The notes under the pieces: generated by a model
The model's database searches: none
What the model saw: only the letters and a program-made list of their open reading frames with translations
Told to the model about the DNA's origin: nothing
Position numbers and translations under genes: made by a program
Source: a virus
Taxonomy: Duplodnaviria; Heunggongvirae; Uroviricota; Caudoviricetes
Virus record (IMG/VR): IMGVR_UViG_2534681759_000011
Length of the DNA stretch: 37,514 nucleotides
Strand: one strand, 5' to 3'
In this document: positions 5,445 to 30,003 of the stretch, in pieces
Position numbering within the stretch: position 1 is the stretch's first letter
How the letters are laid out: every line of letters starts with the position of its first letter

Positions 5445-7724
<2,280 letters not shown>

Positions 7725-7776: not shown

Positions 7777-10584
7777 ATGACGGCAGAGTACATCAGGGAC
7801 TGGCAGCAACCGCGCCACGCAGTGGGGCGTGAAGGAACGGGGATCCCCGCTCCTGAATCCGCGCTTTCCTCCTGGCTGGATGCCTACCGGGCAGAGAACG
7901 AGCGCTGCCAGGAAATGGCTGATGCGGCGTTCTCCGCCACGCCGCTGGGCAACCTGATTAATAAAAGCCTGGACGCACAGGAAAAACAGGACAAAACCAT
8001 CACACTGGCAGGAGACGCCAGAAAGCAGGTACGCGGCGCGGTGGATGAAGCCATGGCCTCGCTGCGCCTGCTGCCATCCTATCTGCGCGATCCGCTTATT
8101 CGCCACCTCTCCTTCCTGCGCAAAAAACAGGAATCTGACCGCCAGAAAGGTAAAAAGAACCAGCAGGCTGAACGCTACGCGCGCGGGACCCTGCGCAAAA
8201 TATTCGAACGTCTGGATCGCACTGACGGGCGCTGGCTGACACCGGGTTATCGCTCCCTTGCCGGGCGCGAACGCCTGGACGATTTGCTTTACCTGCCGCA
8301 GCTCAACAAGCACCAGATACAGACGCTGGCCACCATGACGGCGGCGATGTTCAGCAGCACCTTCGAAACACTCTGCGATGGCTTTGGTGCCAGAGATGGC
8401 GAGCTGACCATGGATGTAATGTTGAAGGCTTACCGGATGCTGGCCCGTATCGCATTACGCCTGCACATCATGCCGCCACATTACGAAGCCCTGAACAAGA
8501 GCGATCCGGATACGGAACTGTTACCGGGCGCAATCCTTCGCCTGACCTGTGCGGAATGGTGGAAACGCAAATTGTGGCTGTTACGTTGCGAGTGGAGAGA
8601 AGAACAACTCCGCGCCGCCTGTCTGGTTTCCAGAAAAACATCACCCTATCTGAGCCAGGACGCGTTAAGCGAGTTTCGCGCACAGCGCGAGAAAACACGC
8701 GATTTCCTGAAAAGTTTCATGCTGGAAAACGAAGACGGGTTCACGATTGATCTCGAGACAGTGTATTACGCGGGAGTAAGTAACCCGGTTCACCGTAAGG
8801 CAGAAATGATGGCCACCATGAAGGGGCTGGAACTTCTGGCCGAAGCCCGTGGCGACAAAGCGGTGTTTCTGACTGTCACCTGCCCGTCAAAATACCACGC
8901 CACAACAGAGAACGGTCATCCGAATCCCAAATGGAACGGGGCCACCATGCGCGACTCCAGCGATTACCTGGTTAACACGTTTTTTGCGGCGGTCCGCAAG
9001 AAACTGAACCGCGACGGCCTGCGCTGGTATGGCATCCGCACGGTGGAGCCTCACCATGACGGCACCGTGCACTGGCATATGATGGTCTTTGCACATCCGG
9101 ACGAGATTGAAACCATCGTGTCCCACGTCTGCGATATTGCCATTCAGGAAGACCGCCACGAGCTGGGCGATGACATAACTCCGCGTTTTAAGGCGGAGTA
9201 CGTAGACGGCTCAAAAGGCACACCAACCAGCTACATCGCCACCTACATCGGAAAGAACCTGGACAGCCGCGCCGTGGATGGCATCGACCAGAAAACGGGC
9301 AAGCCACGCGTTGACCACGAAACCGGAAAATCAATGGCCGAGAGCGTGGAACGCGCCATCGGCTGGGCGCGCCTTCACCGGGTCCGCCAGTTCCAGTTCT
9401 TTGGCATCCCCTCCCGTCAGGTGTGGCGTGAACTCCGCCGCCTTGCCAGCCAGATGGCACGCAACCCGGAAGGCCCGCAACGGCTGAAGGATGACGCAAT
9501 GGATGCGGTACTCGCTGCCGCTGATGCAGGATGTTTTGCCACCTACATAGAGAAACAGGGCGGCGTACTTGTTCCACGCAAAGACTACCTGATTCGCACC
9601 GCCTACGACCTCGCCGATGAGCTGAACGATTACGGCGAACAGAGCGTACAGATTTACGGGATCTGGTCACCACTCATCGGGGAATCCTCCCGTGTGTGCA
9701 CGCATCCGGATAACTGGAAGCTGGTAAGACGCAAACCGGAAGCGGAAGACAGCGCCCGCGAAAATGGTTTTGACCTTCAGGGCGGCCCTGCCGCCCCTTG
9801 GACTCGTGGCAATAACTGTCCCCGTGTACAGGAAACAGGCAACAGCGGGACAGAACAGTCGAAAGAACGGCCAGCACCGTGGCCGCAGCTTCCTGACGGC
9901 GTTGAAGTGAACGAATGGATGCGCTCACTGAAACGGCACGAACGCCGGGCGCTGATGCGTTCGCTTCGTGACAAACAGGCAAAAAACAGCAGTGATGAAA
10001 TGCAGAGCTGGACACAGAGCCGCAAACAGCAGCGGCCTTTGCCTGATAACCACGAATTACTCGCTAAAGAATGGCGGGAGTCTGCCGAATCTCTCGGCCT
10101 GCATATCGGTGAACAGCAGATGCAGCACCTGCTACGGGGCGGCAGCCTGTACGTTGACGGCAGCATCATTGCACCGCAGGGATATGAAATTGTACGCAAA
10201 CCGGATACCCGCCCGGACAGCCGAATCACGCAGCTCTGGCAGCACCTGAGCCGTAATCACGGCGTAAGCAGCACGGAGATCCGCCATAACCCGGTCGCCA
10301 GCTATCTGGCACAGCTGGGGGCATCAGACCCCGAAGCCGCCGCACGCCTGGCATCCGCACTTCAGCAGGATCAGAACACCATGAAAACACCCGTTACCGT
10401 GCTTTCTGACATGCTGCGCGCCATCCGCGACGCAGAGCACGCACAGAGAATCAGTGAAACCACTGAACGCGCCAGCCGCAAAGCAGACCTGCTGCAGGGT
10501 GGCCTGACCAGTGGAAACAAAAAACAGACAGAAACGGGATCCACAAATCCCGTAAATGAGCAAAAAACGCGCCGCGATATATGA
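7777..10584 (+). CDS. A: Rolling-circle replication initiation endonuclease, P2 gpA family (935 aa)
   Basis: HUH motif in EPHHDGTVHWHMMVF and catalytic tyrosine pair in YIATYIGKNLD; weak RBS, start immediately downstream of the IS. Confidence 0.85.
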   Translation: MTAEYIRDWQQPRHAVGREGTGIPAPESALSSWLDAYRAENERCQEMADAAFSATPLGNLINKSLDAQEKQDKTITLAGDARKQVRGAVDEAMASLRLLPSYLRDPLIRHLSFLRKKQESDRQKGKKNQQAERYARGTLRKIFERLDRTDGRWLTPGYRSLAGRERLDDLLYLPQLNKHQIQTLATMTAAMFSSTFETLCDGFGARDGELTMDVMLKAYRMLARIALRLHIMPPHYEALNKSDPDTELLPGAILRLTCAEWWKRKLWLLRCEWREEQLRAACLVSRKTSPYLSQDALSEFRAQREKTRDFLKSFMLENEDGFTIDLETVYYAGVSNPVHRKAEMMATMKGLELLAEARGDKAVFLTVTCPSKYHATTENGHPNPKWNGATMRDSSDYLVNTFFAAVRKKLNRDGLRWYGIRTVEPHHDGTVHWHMMVFAHPDEIETIVSHVCDIAIQEDRHELGDDITPRFKAEYVDGSKGTPTSYIATYIGKNLDSRAVDGIDQKTGKPRVDHETGKSMAESVERAIGWARLHRVRQFQFFGIPSRQVWRELRRLASQMARNPEGPQRLKDDAMDAVLAAADAGCFATYIEKQGGVLVPRKDYLIRTAYDLADELNDYGEQSVQIYGIWSPLIGESSRVCTHPDNWKLVRRKPEAEDSARENGFDLQGGPAAPWTRGNNCPRVQETGNSGTEQSKERPAPWPQLPDGVEVNEWMRSLKRHERRALMRSLRDKQAKNSSDEMQSWTQSRKQQRPLPDNHELLAKEWRESAESLGLHIGEQQMQHLLRGGSLYVDGSIIAPQGYEIVRKPDTRPDSRITQLWQHLSRNHGVSSTEIRHNPVASYLAQLGASDPEAAARLASALQQDQNTMKTPVTVLSDMLRAIRDAEHAQRISETTERASRKADLLQGGLTSGNKKQTETGSTNPVNEQKTRRDI

Positions 10585-10642
10585 AGCGCGCACAAAACAG
10601 GCGAAAGCGGGATTTAAAAATCCCGTAAACGGTTAATTAACC
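10534..10642. promoter_or_regulatory. Palindromic repeats: two copies of CGGGAT-N6-ATCCCGTAAA plus GGTTAATTAACC; candidate parC-like centromere/operator or ori element
   Basis: ACGGGATCCACAAATCCCGT at 10534-10553 (inside the 3' end of gene A), CGGGATTTAAAAATCCCG at 10608-10625, and the perfect palindrome GGTTAATTAACC at about 10630-10642, all just upstream of the parM-like start. Confidence 0.35.
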
Positions 10643-10660: not shown

Positions 10661-11620
10661 ATGAAAATTTGTATCGACGACGGCTCCACCAACATCAAGC
10701 TGGCATGGACTGAGAACGGCGAACGCCGCAACGCCATCAGCCCGAACAGCTTCAAGTCGGAATGGTCTGCGCCGTTCGGTGGCACGCATCCCGCGAACTA
10801 CATGCTTGATGGCGTGCGCTATGGCTTTGATCCGGTCAGCGATCGTTTTGTCCAGACGACTGACACGCAATACCAGTACAGCGATGTGAATGTAATCGCC
10901 ATTCATCACGCGCTGGTCAAATCAGGCATCACGCCACAGGAGGTGGATGTGGTTGTCACCCTGCCACTGAGCGAGTATTTCGACACAAACGCACAGCCGG
11001 ACATGGCCAACATCAACCGCAAAAAAGCGAACGTCATGCGCCCGGTGGAGTACCAGAACGGCGAAGCATTCACTATCCGTAACGTACGGGTTATGCCTGA
11101 ATCCATTCCGGCTGGCTTTAAGGCACTGGCTGACATGAGTCCGTTTGAATCCCTGCTGATTGTGGATTTGGGCGGAACCACGCTGGATGTGGCAAAGGTT
11201 CAGGGGCAGCTGGCAGGTATCAGCCAGGTGTTTTGCGATCCAAACGTAGGCGTTTCCCTGATGGCTGATTCCGTGCTGTCGGTGATGGCCACTAACGGTA
11301 TGCGTACCAGTCACCACATCGCCAATACCATTATTGAGCACCGTCACGATGAAGCCTGGCTGCGCCAGCACATTCACAATGACGCGCATTACAACAGCCT
11401 GATGGCGGTTATTCGTGAAAAGGAGGAGACACTGAAACAACGAGTGATCCGCGCGCTGGCGGGTTTTTCCGGTTACGGGCGGGTGATGGTTGTCGGTGGA
11501 GGGGCGGAGATTGTGGCACCCGCTATCCGCGAAGCCTGCGGAGTTAATGCGACTTTCATCGCGGACGGGGTGCCACAGTTTGCTCTGGTTAATGGGCTGT
11601 ACGCAATGAACAAGGAGTAA
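10661..11620 (+). CDS. parM: Actin-like segregation ATPase, ParM/StbA family (319 aa)
   Basis: Actin-fold motifs IDDGSTNIK (phosphate 1), LIVDLGGTTLDV (phosphate 2) and MVVGGGAE (adenosine); remembered close similarity to plasmid R1 ParM. Confidence 0.85.
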   Translation: MKICIDDGSTNIKLAWTENGERRNAISPNSFKSEWSAPFGGTHPANYMLDGVRYGFDPVSDRFVQTTDTQYQYSDVNVIAIHHALVKSGITPQEVDVVVTLPLSEYFDTNAQPDMANINRKKANVMRPVEYQNGEAFTIRNVRVMPESIPAGFKALADMSPFESLLIVDLGGTTLDVAKVQGQLAGISQVFCDPNVGVSLMADSVLSVMATNGMRTSHHIANTIIEHRHDEAWLRQHIHNDAHYNSLMAVIREKEETLKQRVIRALAGFSGYGRVMVVGGGAEIVAPAIREACGVNATFIADGVPQFALVNGLYAMNKE

Positions 11621-11624
11621 ACCA

Positions 11625-11936
11625 ATGACGACACCAACCAGAAGAATAAGTTTCTATCTGAAGCCAGCTGCCGTCAAGAACGAAGGAGAAGCATGCGCAT
11701 GGCTGGACAGCCTTACACCAGAAGCCCGCAAAAGCGGCCAACGCGTGGCTTTTCTGGCCGGGCTGGCACTTCTGAAGACGAATCCGGCAGAGGCTTACCG
11801 ACTGGCCGCATGGGCTGATGATGAGATGTTACCTGTGACACAAATCAGCTCAAAAAAGTTTGAAGCACAGTCTGCACCAGTGGCTAAGATAACCAGCCAG
11901 ATGGCTGGGAATATCCGGGCGTTATTTCCTGGGTAA
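11625..11936 (+). CDS. parR: ParR-like centromere-binding adaptor protein (103 aa)
   Basis: Immediately downstream of parM; N-terminal RISFYLKP and AFLAGLALL segments resemble R1 ParR. Confidence 0.55.
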   Translation: MTTPTRRISFYLKPAAVKNEGEACAWLDSLTPEARKSGQRVAFLAGLALLKTNPAEAYRLAAWADDEMLPVTQISSKKFEAQSAPVAKITSQMAGNIRALFPG

Positions 11937-12198
11937 AAGCATCTGCGCGAAAAATGCTCACATTTATAGAAACAGTATCATTCCATTTGGCGCACTTACT
12001 TCAATAATCGATCTGTTAAACAAATAGATTGTCTATTATCTATCGATTAAAACGATCAATTATCTTGACAGTAATGTGCCTTTTTGTAAGATCGTTCGCA
12101 TTGTGAGCGACAAGATAATTGCGCGGCATTGTCCATGCAAAACGCCCCAATAGCAGCAACTATTGGGGCGTAGAACTCGGTCGGACTCACTTAACCTG

Positions 12199-12284
12199 AT
12201 ATGCGTGCCTTCCGAAGTAAATCAAAATGTGCGTCGTATATTTTATTGCTTACACGCACCTCTGTAAAGGCACGCATATTTTTC
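12199..12284 (+). other. Structured leader ending in a T-run directly upstream of the 12301 ORF (attenuator-like or small RNA 3' end)
   Basis: ATATGCGTGCCTT (12199-12212) pairs with AAGGCACGCATAT (12266-12278) followed by TTTTT; inner hairpin GTGCGT…ACGCAC; an 11-bp perfect hairpin CGCCCCAATAG/CTATTGGGGCG lies at about 12139-12166; candidate sigma70 promoter TTGACA at about 12066. Confidence 0.3.
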
Positions 12285-12300
12285 CTATGAGGTAAATAAA

Positions 12301-12570
12301 GTGCGGGCTAAAACAGGTATTTGCAAGAACCCTCATCGTTATAACCCAACATTTCTGTCTCTCCCTGAATATCAAGGACAAGAAGGTCGGCACAAATGCG
12401 CTGCCTGTGCTTTTGAGCTAGGCATAAAAGATGCGCTTGAAGGACGCGCTATGGCTCAGAATGATTTAGTTTTAGCTAACATTCCGTTTAGCCAGGCTGG
12501 AACTGTAAGGCACAGAGATGCTTATGAAGCATATGTTCGTGGTTGGCGATTAATACACAGCAACAATTGA
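12301..12570 (+). CDS. Small Cys/His-rich protein of unknown function (89 aa)
   Basis: GTG start with RBS GAGG at 12289; pattern C-x4-H…H-x-C-x2-C suggests metal binding; followed by a strong terminator. Confidence 0.45.
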   Translation: MRAKTGICKNPHRYNPTFLSLPEYQGQEGRHKCAACAFELGIKDALEGRAMAQNDLVLANIPFSQAGTVRHRDAYEAYVRGWRLIHSNN

Positions 12571-12577
12571 TATTTTT

Positions 12578-12603
12578 GAAGCGCCGATAAGGCGCTTTTT
12601 TTG
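12578..12603 (+). terminator. Rho-independent terminator
   Basis: Hairpin AAGCGCC-GATA-AGGCGCTT followed by a T-run. Confidence 0.6.
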
Positions 12604-12727
12604 TTTGCACGATAGTGCACAAGTTTGCACAATTTTTTTGAACGACTTTTTGTACTTCCGGCCCGCGTGGCGGCTGGATCCGTCAAGGATCCGTACGTGC
12701 ACAAAAAACGCGTTTTTTCTACGCGCA

Positions 12728-13029: not shown

Positions 13030-13130
13030 GCGAAGCAGCAGACAAGCGAAGCGCGTCAGCGATACGGCACCTTGCCGACCATACTTCGTAAGTGCAAAAT
13101 ACGAGCAAAGAAATCAATGGAGGCTGTCTT

Positions 13131-13655
13131 ATGGTCATTAATTACAAGCAGTTAAGAGAAAAACGGGAGCAGGTAAAGGAGAGCTTTCGCCGCAATGAAG
13201 ATCTGACCCCGCTTGTACGCCTTGCCCAGGGCATTGTTGATGCTTATGAAATCTCGCTGGAGCTGCCATCACAGACCTGGACAGATAGCGACGGTAATCG
13301 CCAGCATTACGTTTCATGCGGACTGGAAGCAGCCGAAGGATTTCGCAGAATGCCTTTATCTCAGATCCCTGCCGCTACCCCCAAAGCAAGGGGCGGCAAT
13401 GATGAGCGAAAACTGATTTTCAGCATTGAGACAGTGGTTGACGACACACCTGGCGAAGTCGCCTTCGTGCATACTCCTCTTTCGATCGCAATGTATAACG
13501 ATGAAATACAGGTTCGCGTTAATAATAATATCGTGCCACTTAAAGAAGGTAATTCACCCTACACCACCGTTTGTGAAGCCATTCAATATTACGTTTTCTC
13601 TGAAATTGATAATCTCAAGCCTGACGGCACCCAGAAAATGGTTCAGCTCTGGTAA
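13131..13655 (+). CDS. Uncharacterised protein (174 aa) between the putative cos region and the portal gene
   Basis: ATG at 13131 with RBS GGAGG at 13119-13123; AT-rich compared with neighbouring structural genes; convergent with portal gene; no recognisable motif. Confidence 0.5.
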   Translation: MVINYKQLREKREQVKESFRRNEDLTPLVRLAQGIVDAYEISLELPSQTWTDSDGNRQHYVSCGLEAAEGFRRMPLSQIPAATPKARGGNDERKLIFSIETVVDDTPGEVAFVHTPLSIAMYNDEIQVRVNNNIVPLKEGNSPYTTVCEAIQYYVFSEIDNLKPDGTQKMVQLW

Positions 13656-27942: not shown

Positions 27943-28470
27943 TTATTCAGGCTTTTGTGGCCATTCAGGATTTGCCGTATCCACACGGCTGACCAGAACA
28001 CTGTAGCGTTCCCATGCTTCCAGTCGTGTGCGCTCCTCGTCTGTTGCCATATTCAGCCTGGCAGCGCGTTCCAGTGGCTGGATGACTGATTCAGTTTCGG
28101 AAAGCAATGCGGCCTTTTGTGATTCGGCCTGTTGTTGCTGTTCGTCTGCTGTATAAATCCGCTTAACCACAGTTCCGTCCTTAAACATCCACTTCCCTGA
28201 ATCATCGGCACGACGATTGACTGTTATATCTGGAATCTCAACGACACTAAAGCCTTCGGGATTAAGCGTTGAGGCATCTTTGGTTATGGCAACAATAATA
28301 TTATTTTCGTCGTAAACAATCTTTATGGTGTCTTCCTGAAAGCTATTTACTTCCTCATACCAGTTTTTACCGTCTTCTGTATATAACCAGATAACATCAA
28401 AATTCTTTGTTAGCTGATATTGCTCTTTTGTTTTTGGATTTCCTGACTTAATATTTTTTAAATGCTGCAT
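27943..28470 (-). CDS. Tail-fibre assembly chaperone, alternative copy inside the invertible segment (175 aa, intact)
   Basis: [24 protein letters not shown]… typical of tail-fibre assembly proteins; silent in the present orientation. Confidence 0.8.
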
Positions 28471-29361: not shown

Positions 29362-29415
29362 TGGCCGTTTCTGGCCTGCATGGCATGATTTGCGCTTTTG
29401 GACGGGAGATTCAGT

Positions 29416-30003
29416 GTGCTGATTGGCTATGTAAGGGTATCAACAAATGACCAGAATACAGACCTGCAACGAAACGCTCTTGTTTGTGCAGGATGTGAAC
29501 AGATATTTGAAGATAAATTAAGCGGGACAAAGACAGACCGACCGGGATTAAAACGCGCTTTAAAGCGCCTTCAAAAAGGTGACACGCTGGTTGTCTGGAA
29601 ACTGGATCGCCTCGGGCGAAGCATGAAACATCTGATTTCTCTCGTCGGGGAACTACGGGAGCGAGGGATTAATTTTCGCAGTCTGACCGACAGCATAGAT
29701 ACATCTTCTCCAATGGGGCGTTTTTTCTTCCACGTGATGGGGGCCCTGGCTGAAATGGAACGTGAATTAATTGTTGAACGTACACTGGCCGGACTGGCGG
29801 CAGCGCGCGCACGGGGGCGCACAGGCGGACGTCGACCGAAGCTGACAAAAGAACAGCATGAGCAAATAGCAAGGCTGATTAAAAACGGTCACGACAGAAA
29901 ACAACTGGCAATAATTTACGGCATTGGTATATCGACGATTTATCGTTACCACCCCGCAGGAGAACCAAGCGGAACAATTGAGAAGAGTCAGGAAACAAAA
30001 TAA
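29416..30003 (+). CDS. Serine DNA invertase, Gin/Hin/Cin/Pin family
   Basis: GTG start behind GGGAGA; N-terminus (M)LIGYVRVSTNDQNTDLQRNAL… with catalytic Ser; nearly matches remembered Mu Gin over the catalytic domain; C-terminal HTH. Confidence 0.9.
   Translation: MLIGYVRVSTNDQNTDLQRNALVCAGCEQIFEDKLSGTKTDRPGLKRALKRLQKGDTLVVWKLDRLGRSMKHLISLVGELRERGINFRSLTDSIDTSSPMGRFFFHVMGALAEMERELIVERTLAGLAAARARGRTGGRRPKLTKEQHEQIARLIKNGHDRKQLAIIYGIGISTIYRYHPAGEPSGTIEKSQETK

Follow-up and report, generated by a model that had tools for sequence, protein, structure and literature searches.

A candidate antisense-controlled cassette in a P2-like prophage encodes a small Cys/His protein whose homologues accompany Dam-like methylases

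One of the closest described parallels to the locus reported here is IS10/Tn10 (pIN/pOUT, RNA-IN/RNA-OUT), in which a GATC site lies over the sense -10 element, a convergent promoter makes a short antisense RNA with a stable hairpin, and the mRNA folds so as to hide its ribosome-binding site (RBS). The product kept low by this arrangement, the IS10 transposase, is a potentially harmful protein that acts on DNA. Type I loci, among them hok/sok of R1, tisB/istR-1, symE/symR and ralR/ralA, share a long leader that keeps the mRNA closed; they reside on prophages or plasmids, in R1 beside partition genes, and at tisB the antisense RNA IstR-1 acts at a standby site upstream of the RBS. In the immI region of P22, the short convergent sar RNA controls ant, a phage moron encoding a small regulatory protein. 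We describe a locus related in layout to these systems at positions 11994-12605 of the viral record IMGVR_UViG_2534681759_000011 (Caudoviricetes), whose whole 37,514-nucleotide (nt) stretch we call the window. It consists of a structured leader, bearing a predicted antisense promoter, and a gene for an 89-amino-acid (aa) protein, ORF89. The reading we prefer, towards which the balance of evidence tips slightly, is that of a moron controlled by antisense RNA, mRNA structure and Dam sites, making a small zinc-type protein linked to DNA adenine methylation.

The control logic of the cassette resembles that of IS10, with the effect of Dam on the cassette predicted from its sites. The geometry differs: RNA-OUT covers both the 5' end and the RBS of RNA-IN, whereas the antisense target in the cassette ends about 60 nt upstream of the RBS, and the two loci share no sequence or protein similarity. 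Action upstream of the RBS is instead what has been described for IstR-1. Unlike the products of type I loci, ORF89 is not a small hydrophobic peptide, and its homologues are constitutive members of restriction-modification operons. In P22, sar overlaps the ant RBS and the protein is unrelated to ORF89; the best Rfam match to the G+C hairpin of the cassette is the sar terminator, but at 22 bits it is well below the gathering score of 43 and reflects a generic G+C hairpin rather than homology. The elements of the cassette, in map order, are as follows.

11994-12064: upstream part of the cassette, with near-palindromes ATCTGTTAAACAAAT, AATAGATTGTCTATT and ATCTATCGAT and two GATC sites (12010-12013 and 12054-12057)
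12057-12067 with 12111-12121: perfect 11-base-pair (bp) inverted repeat, CAATTATCTTG / CAAGATAATTG, bracketing P(+)
12065-12092, plus strand: P(+), predicted sigma-70 promoter (TTGACA 12065-12070, 16-nt spacer, TAAGAT 12087-12092)
12099-12300, plus strand: predicted 5' leader of the ORF89 mRNA, about 200 nt, recognized by its folding z-score and conserved blocks
12136-12233, minus strand: predicted cis-antisense RNA, about 98 nt, deduced from P(-) and the G+C hairpin
12142-12153 with 12160-12171, minus strand: G+C hairpin with a perfect 12-bp stem and a loop of 6, then UUU(U)G on the minus strand
12199-12211 with 12267-12279, plus strand: perfect 13-bp long-range stem, then TTTT at 12280-12283
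12240-12268, minus strand: P(-), predicted sigma-70 promoter (TTTACA 12268 to 12263, 17-nt spacer, TAAAAT 12245 to 12240)
12289-12292 and 12301-12303, plus strand: Shine-Dalgarno sequence GAGG, 8 nt before the start codon, and GTG start codon
12301-12570, plus strand: ORF89, GTG start, 89 aa, small Cys/His protein of PHROG 3941
12578-12605, plus strand: intrinsic terminator (hairpin 12578-12598 with an 8-bp stem containing 5 G-C pairs, then the T-run TTTTTTTGTTT)

By its sequence and distribution, the segment from 11994 to 12605 appears to be a mobile, self-contained cassette (moron) with about 0.55 kb of leader and gene. It has its own predicted promoter (P(+), 12065-12092) and terminator (12578-12598), and both its presence and its map position vary among related phages. 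In P2-like phages (the window and locus L045) the cassette follows parR; in a P22-like Salmonella phage it lies directly downstream of cI; and in Providencia and Arsenophonus phages Q and the lysis genes flank it, and it is on the opposite strand. Its carriers thus comprise P2-like, P22-like and other lambdoid prophages. Near-identical copies are found in Escherichia phages 520873 and 503458, and 166 of 5,426 complete E. coli genomes (3%), O111:H8 and O157:H7 strains included, carry this form of the cassette, always on the chromosome.

A scan of viral contigs returned 80 loci in which leader and gene are conserved together, 33 of them with at least 98% protein identity to the window and 47 with only 51-63%. 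In the diverged loci, 250 nt upstream of the gene can still be aligned, block by block. The leader is thus kept with its gene across homologous loci and is for this reason probably regulatory. Our comparison of leaders uses 27 non-redundant diverged cassettes; these are phylogenetically related and make up about ten clearly distinct subfamilies, so that counts such as 27/27 overstate independence. About half of the listed RefSeq E. coli records have no gene annotated under the cassette (PGAP), which indicates that ORF89 is often missed by automatic annotation. The non-coding RNA STnc1310, located downstream of cI in the Salmonella prophage ST64B (PMC7067206), was considered as a counterpart of the cassette RNA and dropped, since no ORF89 homologue from ST64B is present among the phage-collection matches.

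The predicted minus-strand promoter, P(-), points towards P(+) and has a predicted transcription start near 12233. Its layout, TTTAC[AT] followed after exactly 17 nt by TAnnnT, is found in 27/27 cassettes, and the invariant plus-strand word TGTAAAG corresponds to its -35 hexamer. The -10 hexamer comes in 11 versions, all of which keep T1, A2 and T6. A generic promoter scan independently detected the convergent P(+)/P(-) pair in the window and in the diverged loci L003 and L069.

Almost every subfamily has its own stem sequence for the G+C hairpin, yet the arms always pair, so that the stem covaries among diverged copies. The departures from Watson-Crick pairing depend on the strand in which the hairpin is read. 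In plus-strand letters they comprise 8 A.C and 0 G.T, and in the minus orientation the pairs are 239 Watson-Crick, 40 G.U and 0 A.C, as counted by per-sequence helix extraction in which G.U and A.C were treated alike. Since the wobble pairs are valid only on the minus strand, where the U-run also lies, the hairpin is expected to act in a minus-strand RNA. RNAalifold run on a plain MAFFT alignment reports no pairs in the antisense region because the covarying arms are misaligned. The original prediction had placed a perfect 11-bp hairpin at 12139-12166; a perfect hairpin is indeed present, with a 12-bp stem and at 12142-12171. In two pairs of closely related cassettes, L004 versus L053 (CGGCAA/TTGCCG) and L083 versus L086 (CGTCAA/TTGACG), the hairpin loop is exactly inverted on the same stem, a hallmark of template switching at an inverted repeat, by which the loop is flipped.

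Folding of the minus strand of 12130-12290 gives a z-score of -6.0. The predicted antisense RNA itself folds (z -3.9) into a 3' hairpin and leaves most of its 5' half open, and the G+C hairpin is predicted to be its 3' structure or terminator. It would be fully complementary to the middle of the leader, with the RBS (12289) outside its span. Transcription of both RNAs, the sense mRNA and the antisense, is predicted from these promoter and hairpin sequences.

The plus strand of the leader is also strongly folded. Over 212 nt its predicted energy is -68.9 kcal/mol, compared with a shuffle mean of -53.6 (z -3.8; 0/200 shuffles as good), and leader blocks are conserved across copies despite saturation of synonymous sites in the open reading frame (ORF). 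Folding of the segment from TGTAAAG to the start codon gives a hairpin in which the Shine-Dalgarno sequence, and in many cases the start codon too, is enclosed. In 23/27 cassettes its plus-strand version is the more stable (summed energies -319 versus -230 kcal/mol), with 43 G.U pairs on that strand and 15 on the other; the stability bias indicates that the structure belongs to the mRNA. In subfamilies other than that of the window, the T-run before the RBS forms the loop of this Shine-Dalgarno hairpin.

In the window the leader carries, in addition, the 13-bp stem, which is specific to this allele with its extra ∼25 nt. Between the arms of the stem is a branched loop of 55 nt; TTTT follows the stem, 6 nt ahead of the Shine-Dalgarno sequence. 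The 5' arm lies within the antisense target; the 3' arm overlaps the -35 hexamer of P(-) and, when the antisense target is blocked, has an alternative pairing with the GTG start region. An antisense-driven closed form of the mRNA is plausible on these grounds. Blocking the antisense target lowers the predicted accessibility of the Shine-Dalgarno sequence and start codon in 13/18 cassettes. The long-range stem, the T-run and the alternative pairings had all been proposed from the sequence, and each is found in it or in its predicted folds.

The predicted sense promoter, P(+), agrees with the consensus at 10/12 positions and would start transcription near 12099; its TTGACA, previously placed near 12066, lies at 12065-12070. 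Promoter-like matches are no commoner in the promoter scan than chance allows (2 found, 2.2 expected in shuffles), so the weight here is carried by conservation across diverged copies. A promoter is kept at this position in all subfamilies, with varying hexamers: TTGACA, TTGAAG, TTGAGG or TTGATC at -35, and TAAGAT, TAGGAT, TATTAT or TATAAT at -10.

GATC sites accompany this promoter. Across the cassettes GATC occurs at 11.8 per kb, compared with 0.3-5.6 for 13 other palindromic tetramers (ATAT and TATA aside), in a count made on related sequences and hence not an independent one. The positions tell more: in 22/23 non-redundant cassettes one GATC is placed 10-11 nt upstream of the -35 hexamer, and in many a second overlaps or follows the -10 hexamer; in the window, GATC 12090-12093 overlaps the 3' end of the -10 hexamer of P(+) (TAAGATC, 12087-12093). 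Most relatives, but not the window, have a further GATC at the antisense start (GAGATCTC or GTGATCAC). The upstream part, 11994-12064, is common only to the closest allele group (L042-L046) in the alignment of the 27 cassettes and may be an operator. The 11-bp inverted repeat around P(+) is specific to the window allele and not conserved in the sister group; an operator pair is one possible role for it, folding of a longer antisense transcript another. Only the downstream arm of the repeat would fall within the mRNA.

The 89-aa reading frame of the original prediction, with its GTG start at 12301, RBS and terminator, is present in full, and the GTG aligns with the ATG of sister alleles in the cassette alignment. 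The protein is hydrophilic and Cys/His-rich, as had been proposed, but the spacing is C8-x3-H12 ... H31-x-C33-x2-C36 rather than one beginning C-x4-H. Nor is the gene an orphan: ORF89 matches PHROG 3941, a family of unknown function, with E 6.3e-49, residues 4-89 aligning to profile positions 1-86 of 86. An exhaustive HMMER search finds 172 representative clusters, and a profile search finds 1,599. C8, H12, R30, Q65 and R70 are invariant in the family, and H31, C33, C36 and H71 are kept at 90% or more. From this pattern C8, H12, C33 and C36 are the probable zinc ligands. The motif Q-x-G-x-x-R-H-K is present twice, indicating an internal duplication. The family is under strong purifying selection: between cassette subfamilies the proportion of nonsynonymous differences (pN) is 0.27-0.38 with synonymous sites saturated, and two close alleles give a ratio of nonsynonymous to synonymous substitution (dN/dS) of 0.02.

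The AlphaFold2 model of ORF89 is confident, compact and mostly helical, with a predicted local distance difference test score of 91.6. Profile and structure searches, suggested at the outset with HNH or zinc-ribbon folds in mind, gave no Pfam match and no PDB relative; NCBIfam and PADLOC likewise give no match. Helix-turn-helix (HTH) families are absent from the Pfam results at E values up to 1, and PDB gives no match by sequence or by fold. In the literature searched, which concerned DpnII together with controller or zinc proteins, DUF6996/6997/7226/3644, PDC-S36 and antisense morons of prophages, we found no description of this protein family or of its cassette.

Homologues outside phages offer the best clue to function. 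Beyond the Dam-positive bacteria, stand-alone homologues (84-88 aa, 40-54% identical to ORF89) lie in operons with a D12-class, Dam-like N6-adenine methylase in 9/9 context look-ups, which are the best-scoring and probably related homologues and so are not fully independent. The nuclease partner in these operons varies, being DpnII, DUF6996/6997/7226 or PDDEXK_11; other possible members are a second N6_N4 methylase, a HEPN (DUF3644) protein and a DndB-like protein. Three Bacteroidales loci show the same methylase linkage with a homologue that has an extra C-terminal domain; in one of them (L006) the protein has 279 aa, carries the ORF89 domain at its N terminus and is flanked by a Dam-DpnII fusion on one side and a second methylase on the other. 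Two Lactobacillales plasmids have, in order, an adenine methylase, a gene of about 429 aa (DUF6996/6997/7226 confirmed in one) and the homologue. The consistent link of the ORF89 family to Dam-like methylases appears to be unreported.

These contexts recall the controller (C) proteins of restriction-modification systems, which are also about 85 aa and encoded in such operons, as the distant homologues of ORF89 are, often as the first gene. The ORF89 family differs in having a Cys/His site and no helix-turn-helix, in its variable operon position, and in its constant partner, which is the D12 methylase and not the nuclease. Since one operon (L109) encodes a canonical HTH C protein as well, the family should not simply be equated with C proteins. 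ORF89 domains are in addition fused to NOV_C/DUF3883, HNH, DndB/DpdB and WYL domains, and stand as an N-terminal, non-catalytic module ahead of the DUF3883/NOV_C or HNH nuclease domains. DUF3883 is a PD-(D/E)XK catalytic domain that in modular restriction enzymes is preceded by specificity or modification-sensing domains (PMC6765204), and the ORF89 domain occupies the corresponding position to that seen in YenY4I (PUA-DUF3427-DUF3883; PMC6765204), although it is a distinct domain with no detectable relative. One NOV_C fusion adjoins a D12 methylase and so is not obviously a methylation-dependent (type IV) enzyme.

Orphan copies, unaccompanied by a methylase, occur on phages and plasmids from Escherichia, Salmonella, Providencia, Arsenophonus, Enterobacter, Kosakonia, Serratia, Aeromonas, Vibrio and Aliivibrio. 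All of these genera belong to gammaproteobacterial orders that carry a chromosomal Dam. In the window, no methylase was found among the ten ORFs scanned against Pfam, and no methylase or nuclease gene adjoins ORF89.

These data fit a model in which synthesis of ORF89 is kept low by three layers of control. Dam sites upstream of the -35 and over the -10 hexamer of P(+) would make its activity dependent on the methylation state of the DNA. The ∼200-nt leader would fold so as partly to bury the Shine-Dalgarno sequence and start codon. The convergent P(-) would produce a cis-antisense RNA of about 100 nt, ending at the G+C hairpin, whose pairing with the middle of the leader would lead to a closed form of the mRNA, to exposure to RNase III, or to both; the head-on promoters might also interfere with each other. 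The direction of this control, with antisense RNA lowering ORF89, is deduced from the layout; what the sequences show is the elements, how they are conserved, the strand asymmetries and the gene neighbourhoods. ORF89 itself would be a stand-alone copy of the domain that accompanies D12 methylases or serves as a non-catalytic module of nucleases. Judged by these associations, it most likely recognizes DNA at the methylase target site, or according to its methylation; alternatively, within the same model, the methylase could be what it acts on. The host's Dam would supply the methylase partner in Dam-positive enterobacteria, which would account for the ability of the phage copy to travel alone.

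Several observations weigh against this model, beyond the relatedness of the nine methylase contexts given above. Zinc and DNA binding are proposed from residue patterns and domain fusions, and the ORF89 model has no structural relative in PDB or BFVD to support them. The window allele has GATC only at P(+), whereas most relatives carry it in the leader's second half as well. Upstream of the homologues in restriction-modification operons GATC shows no clustering, which suggests that the GATC sites and the protein may be unrelated. Predicted accessibility of the Shine-Dalgarno sequence and start codon in the window is unchanged by blocking the antisense target (0.43 versus 0.44). The U-tract after the G+C hairpin is 2-4 U, and absent in L059, and the terminator scan does not call the hairpin; with so short a minus-strand U-tract, termination there is uncertain. 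Finally, a terminator-like hairpin on the minus strand is found immediately upstream of P(+) in cassettes of the P and S types (L003 2730-2755; L004 2762-2776), where it could stop antisense transcripts that pass the G+C hairpin, and the antisense RNA may accordingly be longer than predicted.

The layout of the cassette, a long, structured and translationally closed leader with a convergent antisense promoter, is also that expected of a type I toxin-antitoxin (addiction) module, in which ORF89 would serve as toxin, for example by binding DNA indiscriminately, and a short-lived antisense RNA as its antitoxin, together stabilizing the prophage or phage-plasmid. Tight, multi-layer repression suggests a harmful product, and the cassette directly follows the ParM and ParR genes. 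On plasmid R1, hok/sok adjoins parMRC. In addition, an orphan homologue on an IncF plasmid adjoins a YoeB/YefM toxin-antitoxin pair; however, this copy (39% identical) has no antisense leader, and the relatives of ORF89 are ordinary members of restriction-modification operons that have no such leader either. The toxins of type I modules are small, usually under 60 aa, and membrane-bound or hydrophobic, whereas ORF89 is a hydrophilic, mostly helical protein of 89 aa, and the predicted antisense RNA stops short of the RBS. We regard an addiction module, the leading alternative, as unlikely, though it accounts for the layout. A different objection to our reading is that the hairpins are insulating terminators or DNA-level sites, such as a second centromere, between parMR and the cargo, and that the match at P(-) is fortuitous. 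The chance-level frequency of promoter-like matches and the location directly 3' of parR would fit. Yet the elements accompany the gene into phages that have no parMR, parC-like repeats are already present upstream of parM (10518-10629), P(-) is kept in every cassette with changes only at weakly constrained positions, and the strand asymmetry of the pairs is of the RNA type; this explanation is very improbable. The segment 11937-12300 was ruled out as the ParMR centromere on the same two grounds, the position of the parC-like repeats and the association of the leader with ORF89 in parMR-less phages.

The 13-bp stem and its T-run had originally been read as an attenuator, a riboswitch-like leader or the end of a separate small RNA. 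For an attenuator or riboswitch, the stem would end most plus-strand transcripts unless an alternative fold or a ligand intervened, and the perfection of the stem, its TTTT so close to the Shine-Dalgarno sequence and the alternative pairings speak for such a device. The stem, however, has a branched loop of 55 nt and is not called by the terminator scan, and it is absent from every other subfamily, where the T-run has its place in the Shine-Dalgarno hairpin. Searches of Rfam 15, allowing E up to 10 for the window and up to 1 for five related loci, gave no match at a family's gathering score, only hairpin matches below it, to sar and Spot 42. There is very little to recommend attenuation, and a riboswitch no more; neither is supported by the comparison of cassettes and the Rfam result. 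If instead P(+) and the stem with its T-run bounded a plus-strand small RNA of about 185 nt, ORF89 would be made by readthrough only, or not at all. To the same objections concerning the terminator are added here the selection on ORF89 at the protein level with no other promoter to express it, and the strand signal of the Shine-Dalgarno hairpin, which ties the leader to translation of the ORF; we give this account the least credence. A separate small RNA does probably exist at the locus, but the conserved minus-strand promoter and minus-strand hairpin place it on the opposite strand, not as a plus-strand RNA ending before the ORF.

A bolder version of the preferred model, offered tentatively and with appreciable doubt, is that ORF89 founds a new-fold DNA-recognition domain that reads the GATC or N6-methyladenine state of DNA or modulates a methylase, and that the phage cassette is a methylation-sensing switch. 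Restriction-modification systems would then employ the domain as an accessory or as a targeting module for nucleases, and temperate phages of Dam-positive bacteria would have acquired the domain on its own and put it under the control of a Dam-sensitive promoter and an antisense RNA. Such a switch might turn on, for example, when phage or host DNA is under-methylated. If ORF89 does read or modulate adenine methylation, it would represent a new class of reader or regulator in bacterial epigenetics and in restriction conflicts between phage and host.

The regulatory design is a variation on known antisense-controlled phage and plasmid genes, and the RNA belongs to no Rfam family. Were the preferred model correct, the cassette would add an unrecorded phage regulatory RNA and a testable connection among Dam methylation, antisense control and prophage cargo. 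At 89 aa and in the simple background of an E. coli lysogen, ORF89 offers a cheap experimental handle on a family of about 1,600 clusters with consistent ties to Dam-like methylases and restriction-modification systems of the GATC type.

The window belongs to the genus Xuanwuvirus (family Peduoviridae) and is a P2-like prophage; ORF89 occupies the classical cargo region of such prophages, in agreement with the variable location first proposed for it. The order 3' of ParR is a 364-nt gap, ORF89, another ORF of unknown function and the minus-strand portal gene. The neighbouring genes referred to are listed below.

1-1002: integrase
7777-10584: GpA replication protein
10661-11620: ParM
11625-11936: ParR/StbB-type partition protein

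The ParM/ParR(StbB) pair (10661-11936) is thus of plasmid type within an integrated P2-like prophage. Directly upstream of parM are two parC-like 39-nt direct repeats (10518-10556 and 10591-10629), each of which contains the palindrome CGGGAT-N7-ATCCCG. Phages of this type are deposited as separate records in some E. coli assemblies, and so may persist as plasmids too.

On the other side of the cassette, a 187-aa ORF (13092-13655; PHROG 5091, of unknown function; no match in Pfam, NCBIfam or PADLOC) separates the ORF89 terminator from the portal gene. In phage 520873 the corresponding stretch measures only about 490 nt, which identifies this ORF as a second, separate cargo gene. Directly 3' of the ORF89 terminator, GTTTGCAC words are repeated at 12603-12613 and 12623-12633; a 24-nt imperfect inverted repeat pairs 12581-12604 with 12701-12724, and a minus-strand terminator-like site runs from 12726 to 12708. 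These repeats and the terminator-like site (12581-12724) may have a connection with cos or with packaging.

Between the early genes and replication gene A, an IS21-family istA-like gene (rve integrase core, 309 aa) and istB (5863-7665) look like an insertion sequence within the prophage. A serine recombinase gene (Resolvase + HTH_7, 201 aa; 29398-30003) is located near the tail-fibre assembly gene (27943-28470), an arrangement usual for a tail-fibre inversion switch of the Hin/Gin/Cin type.

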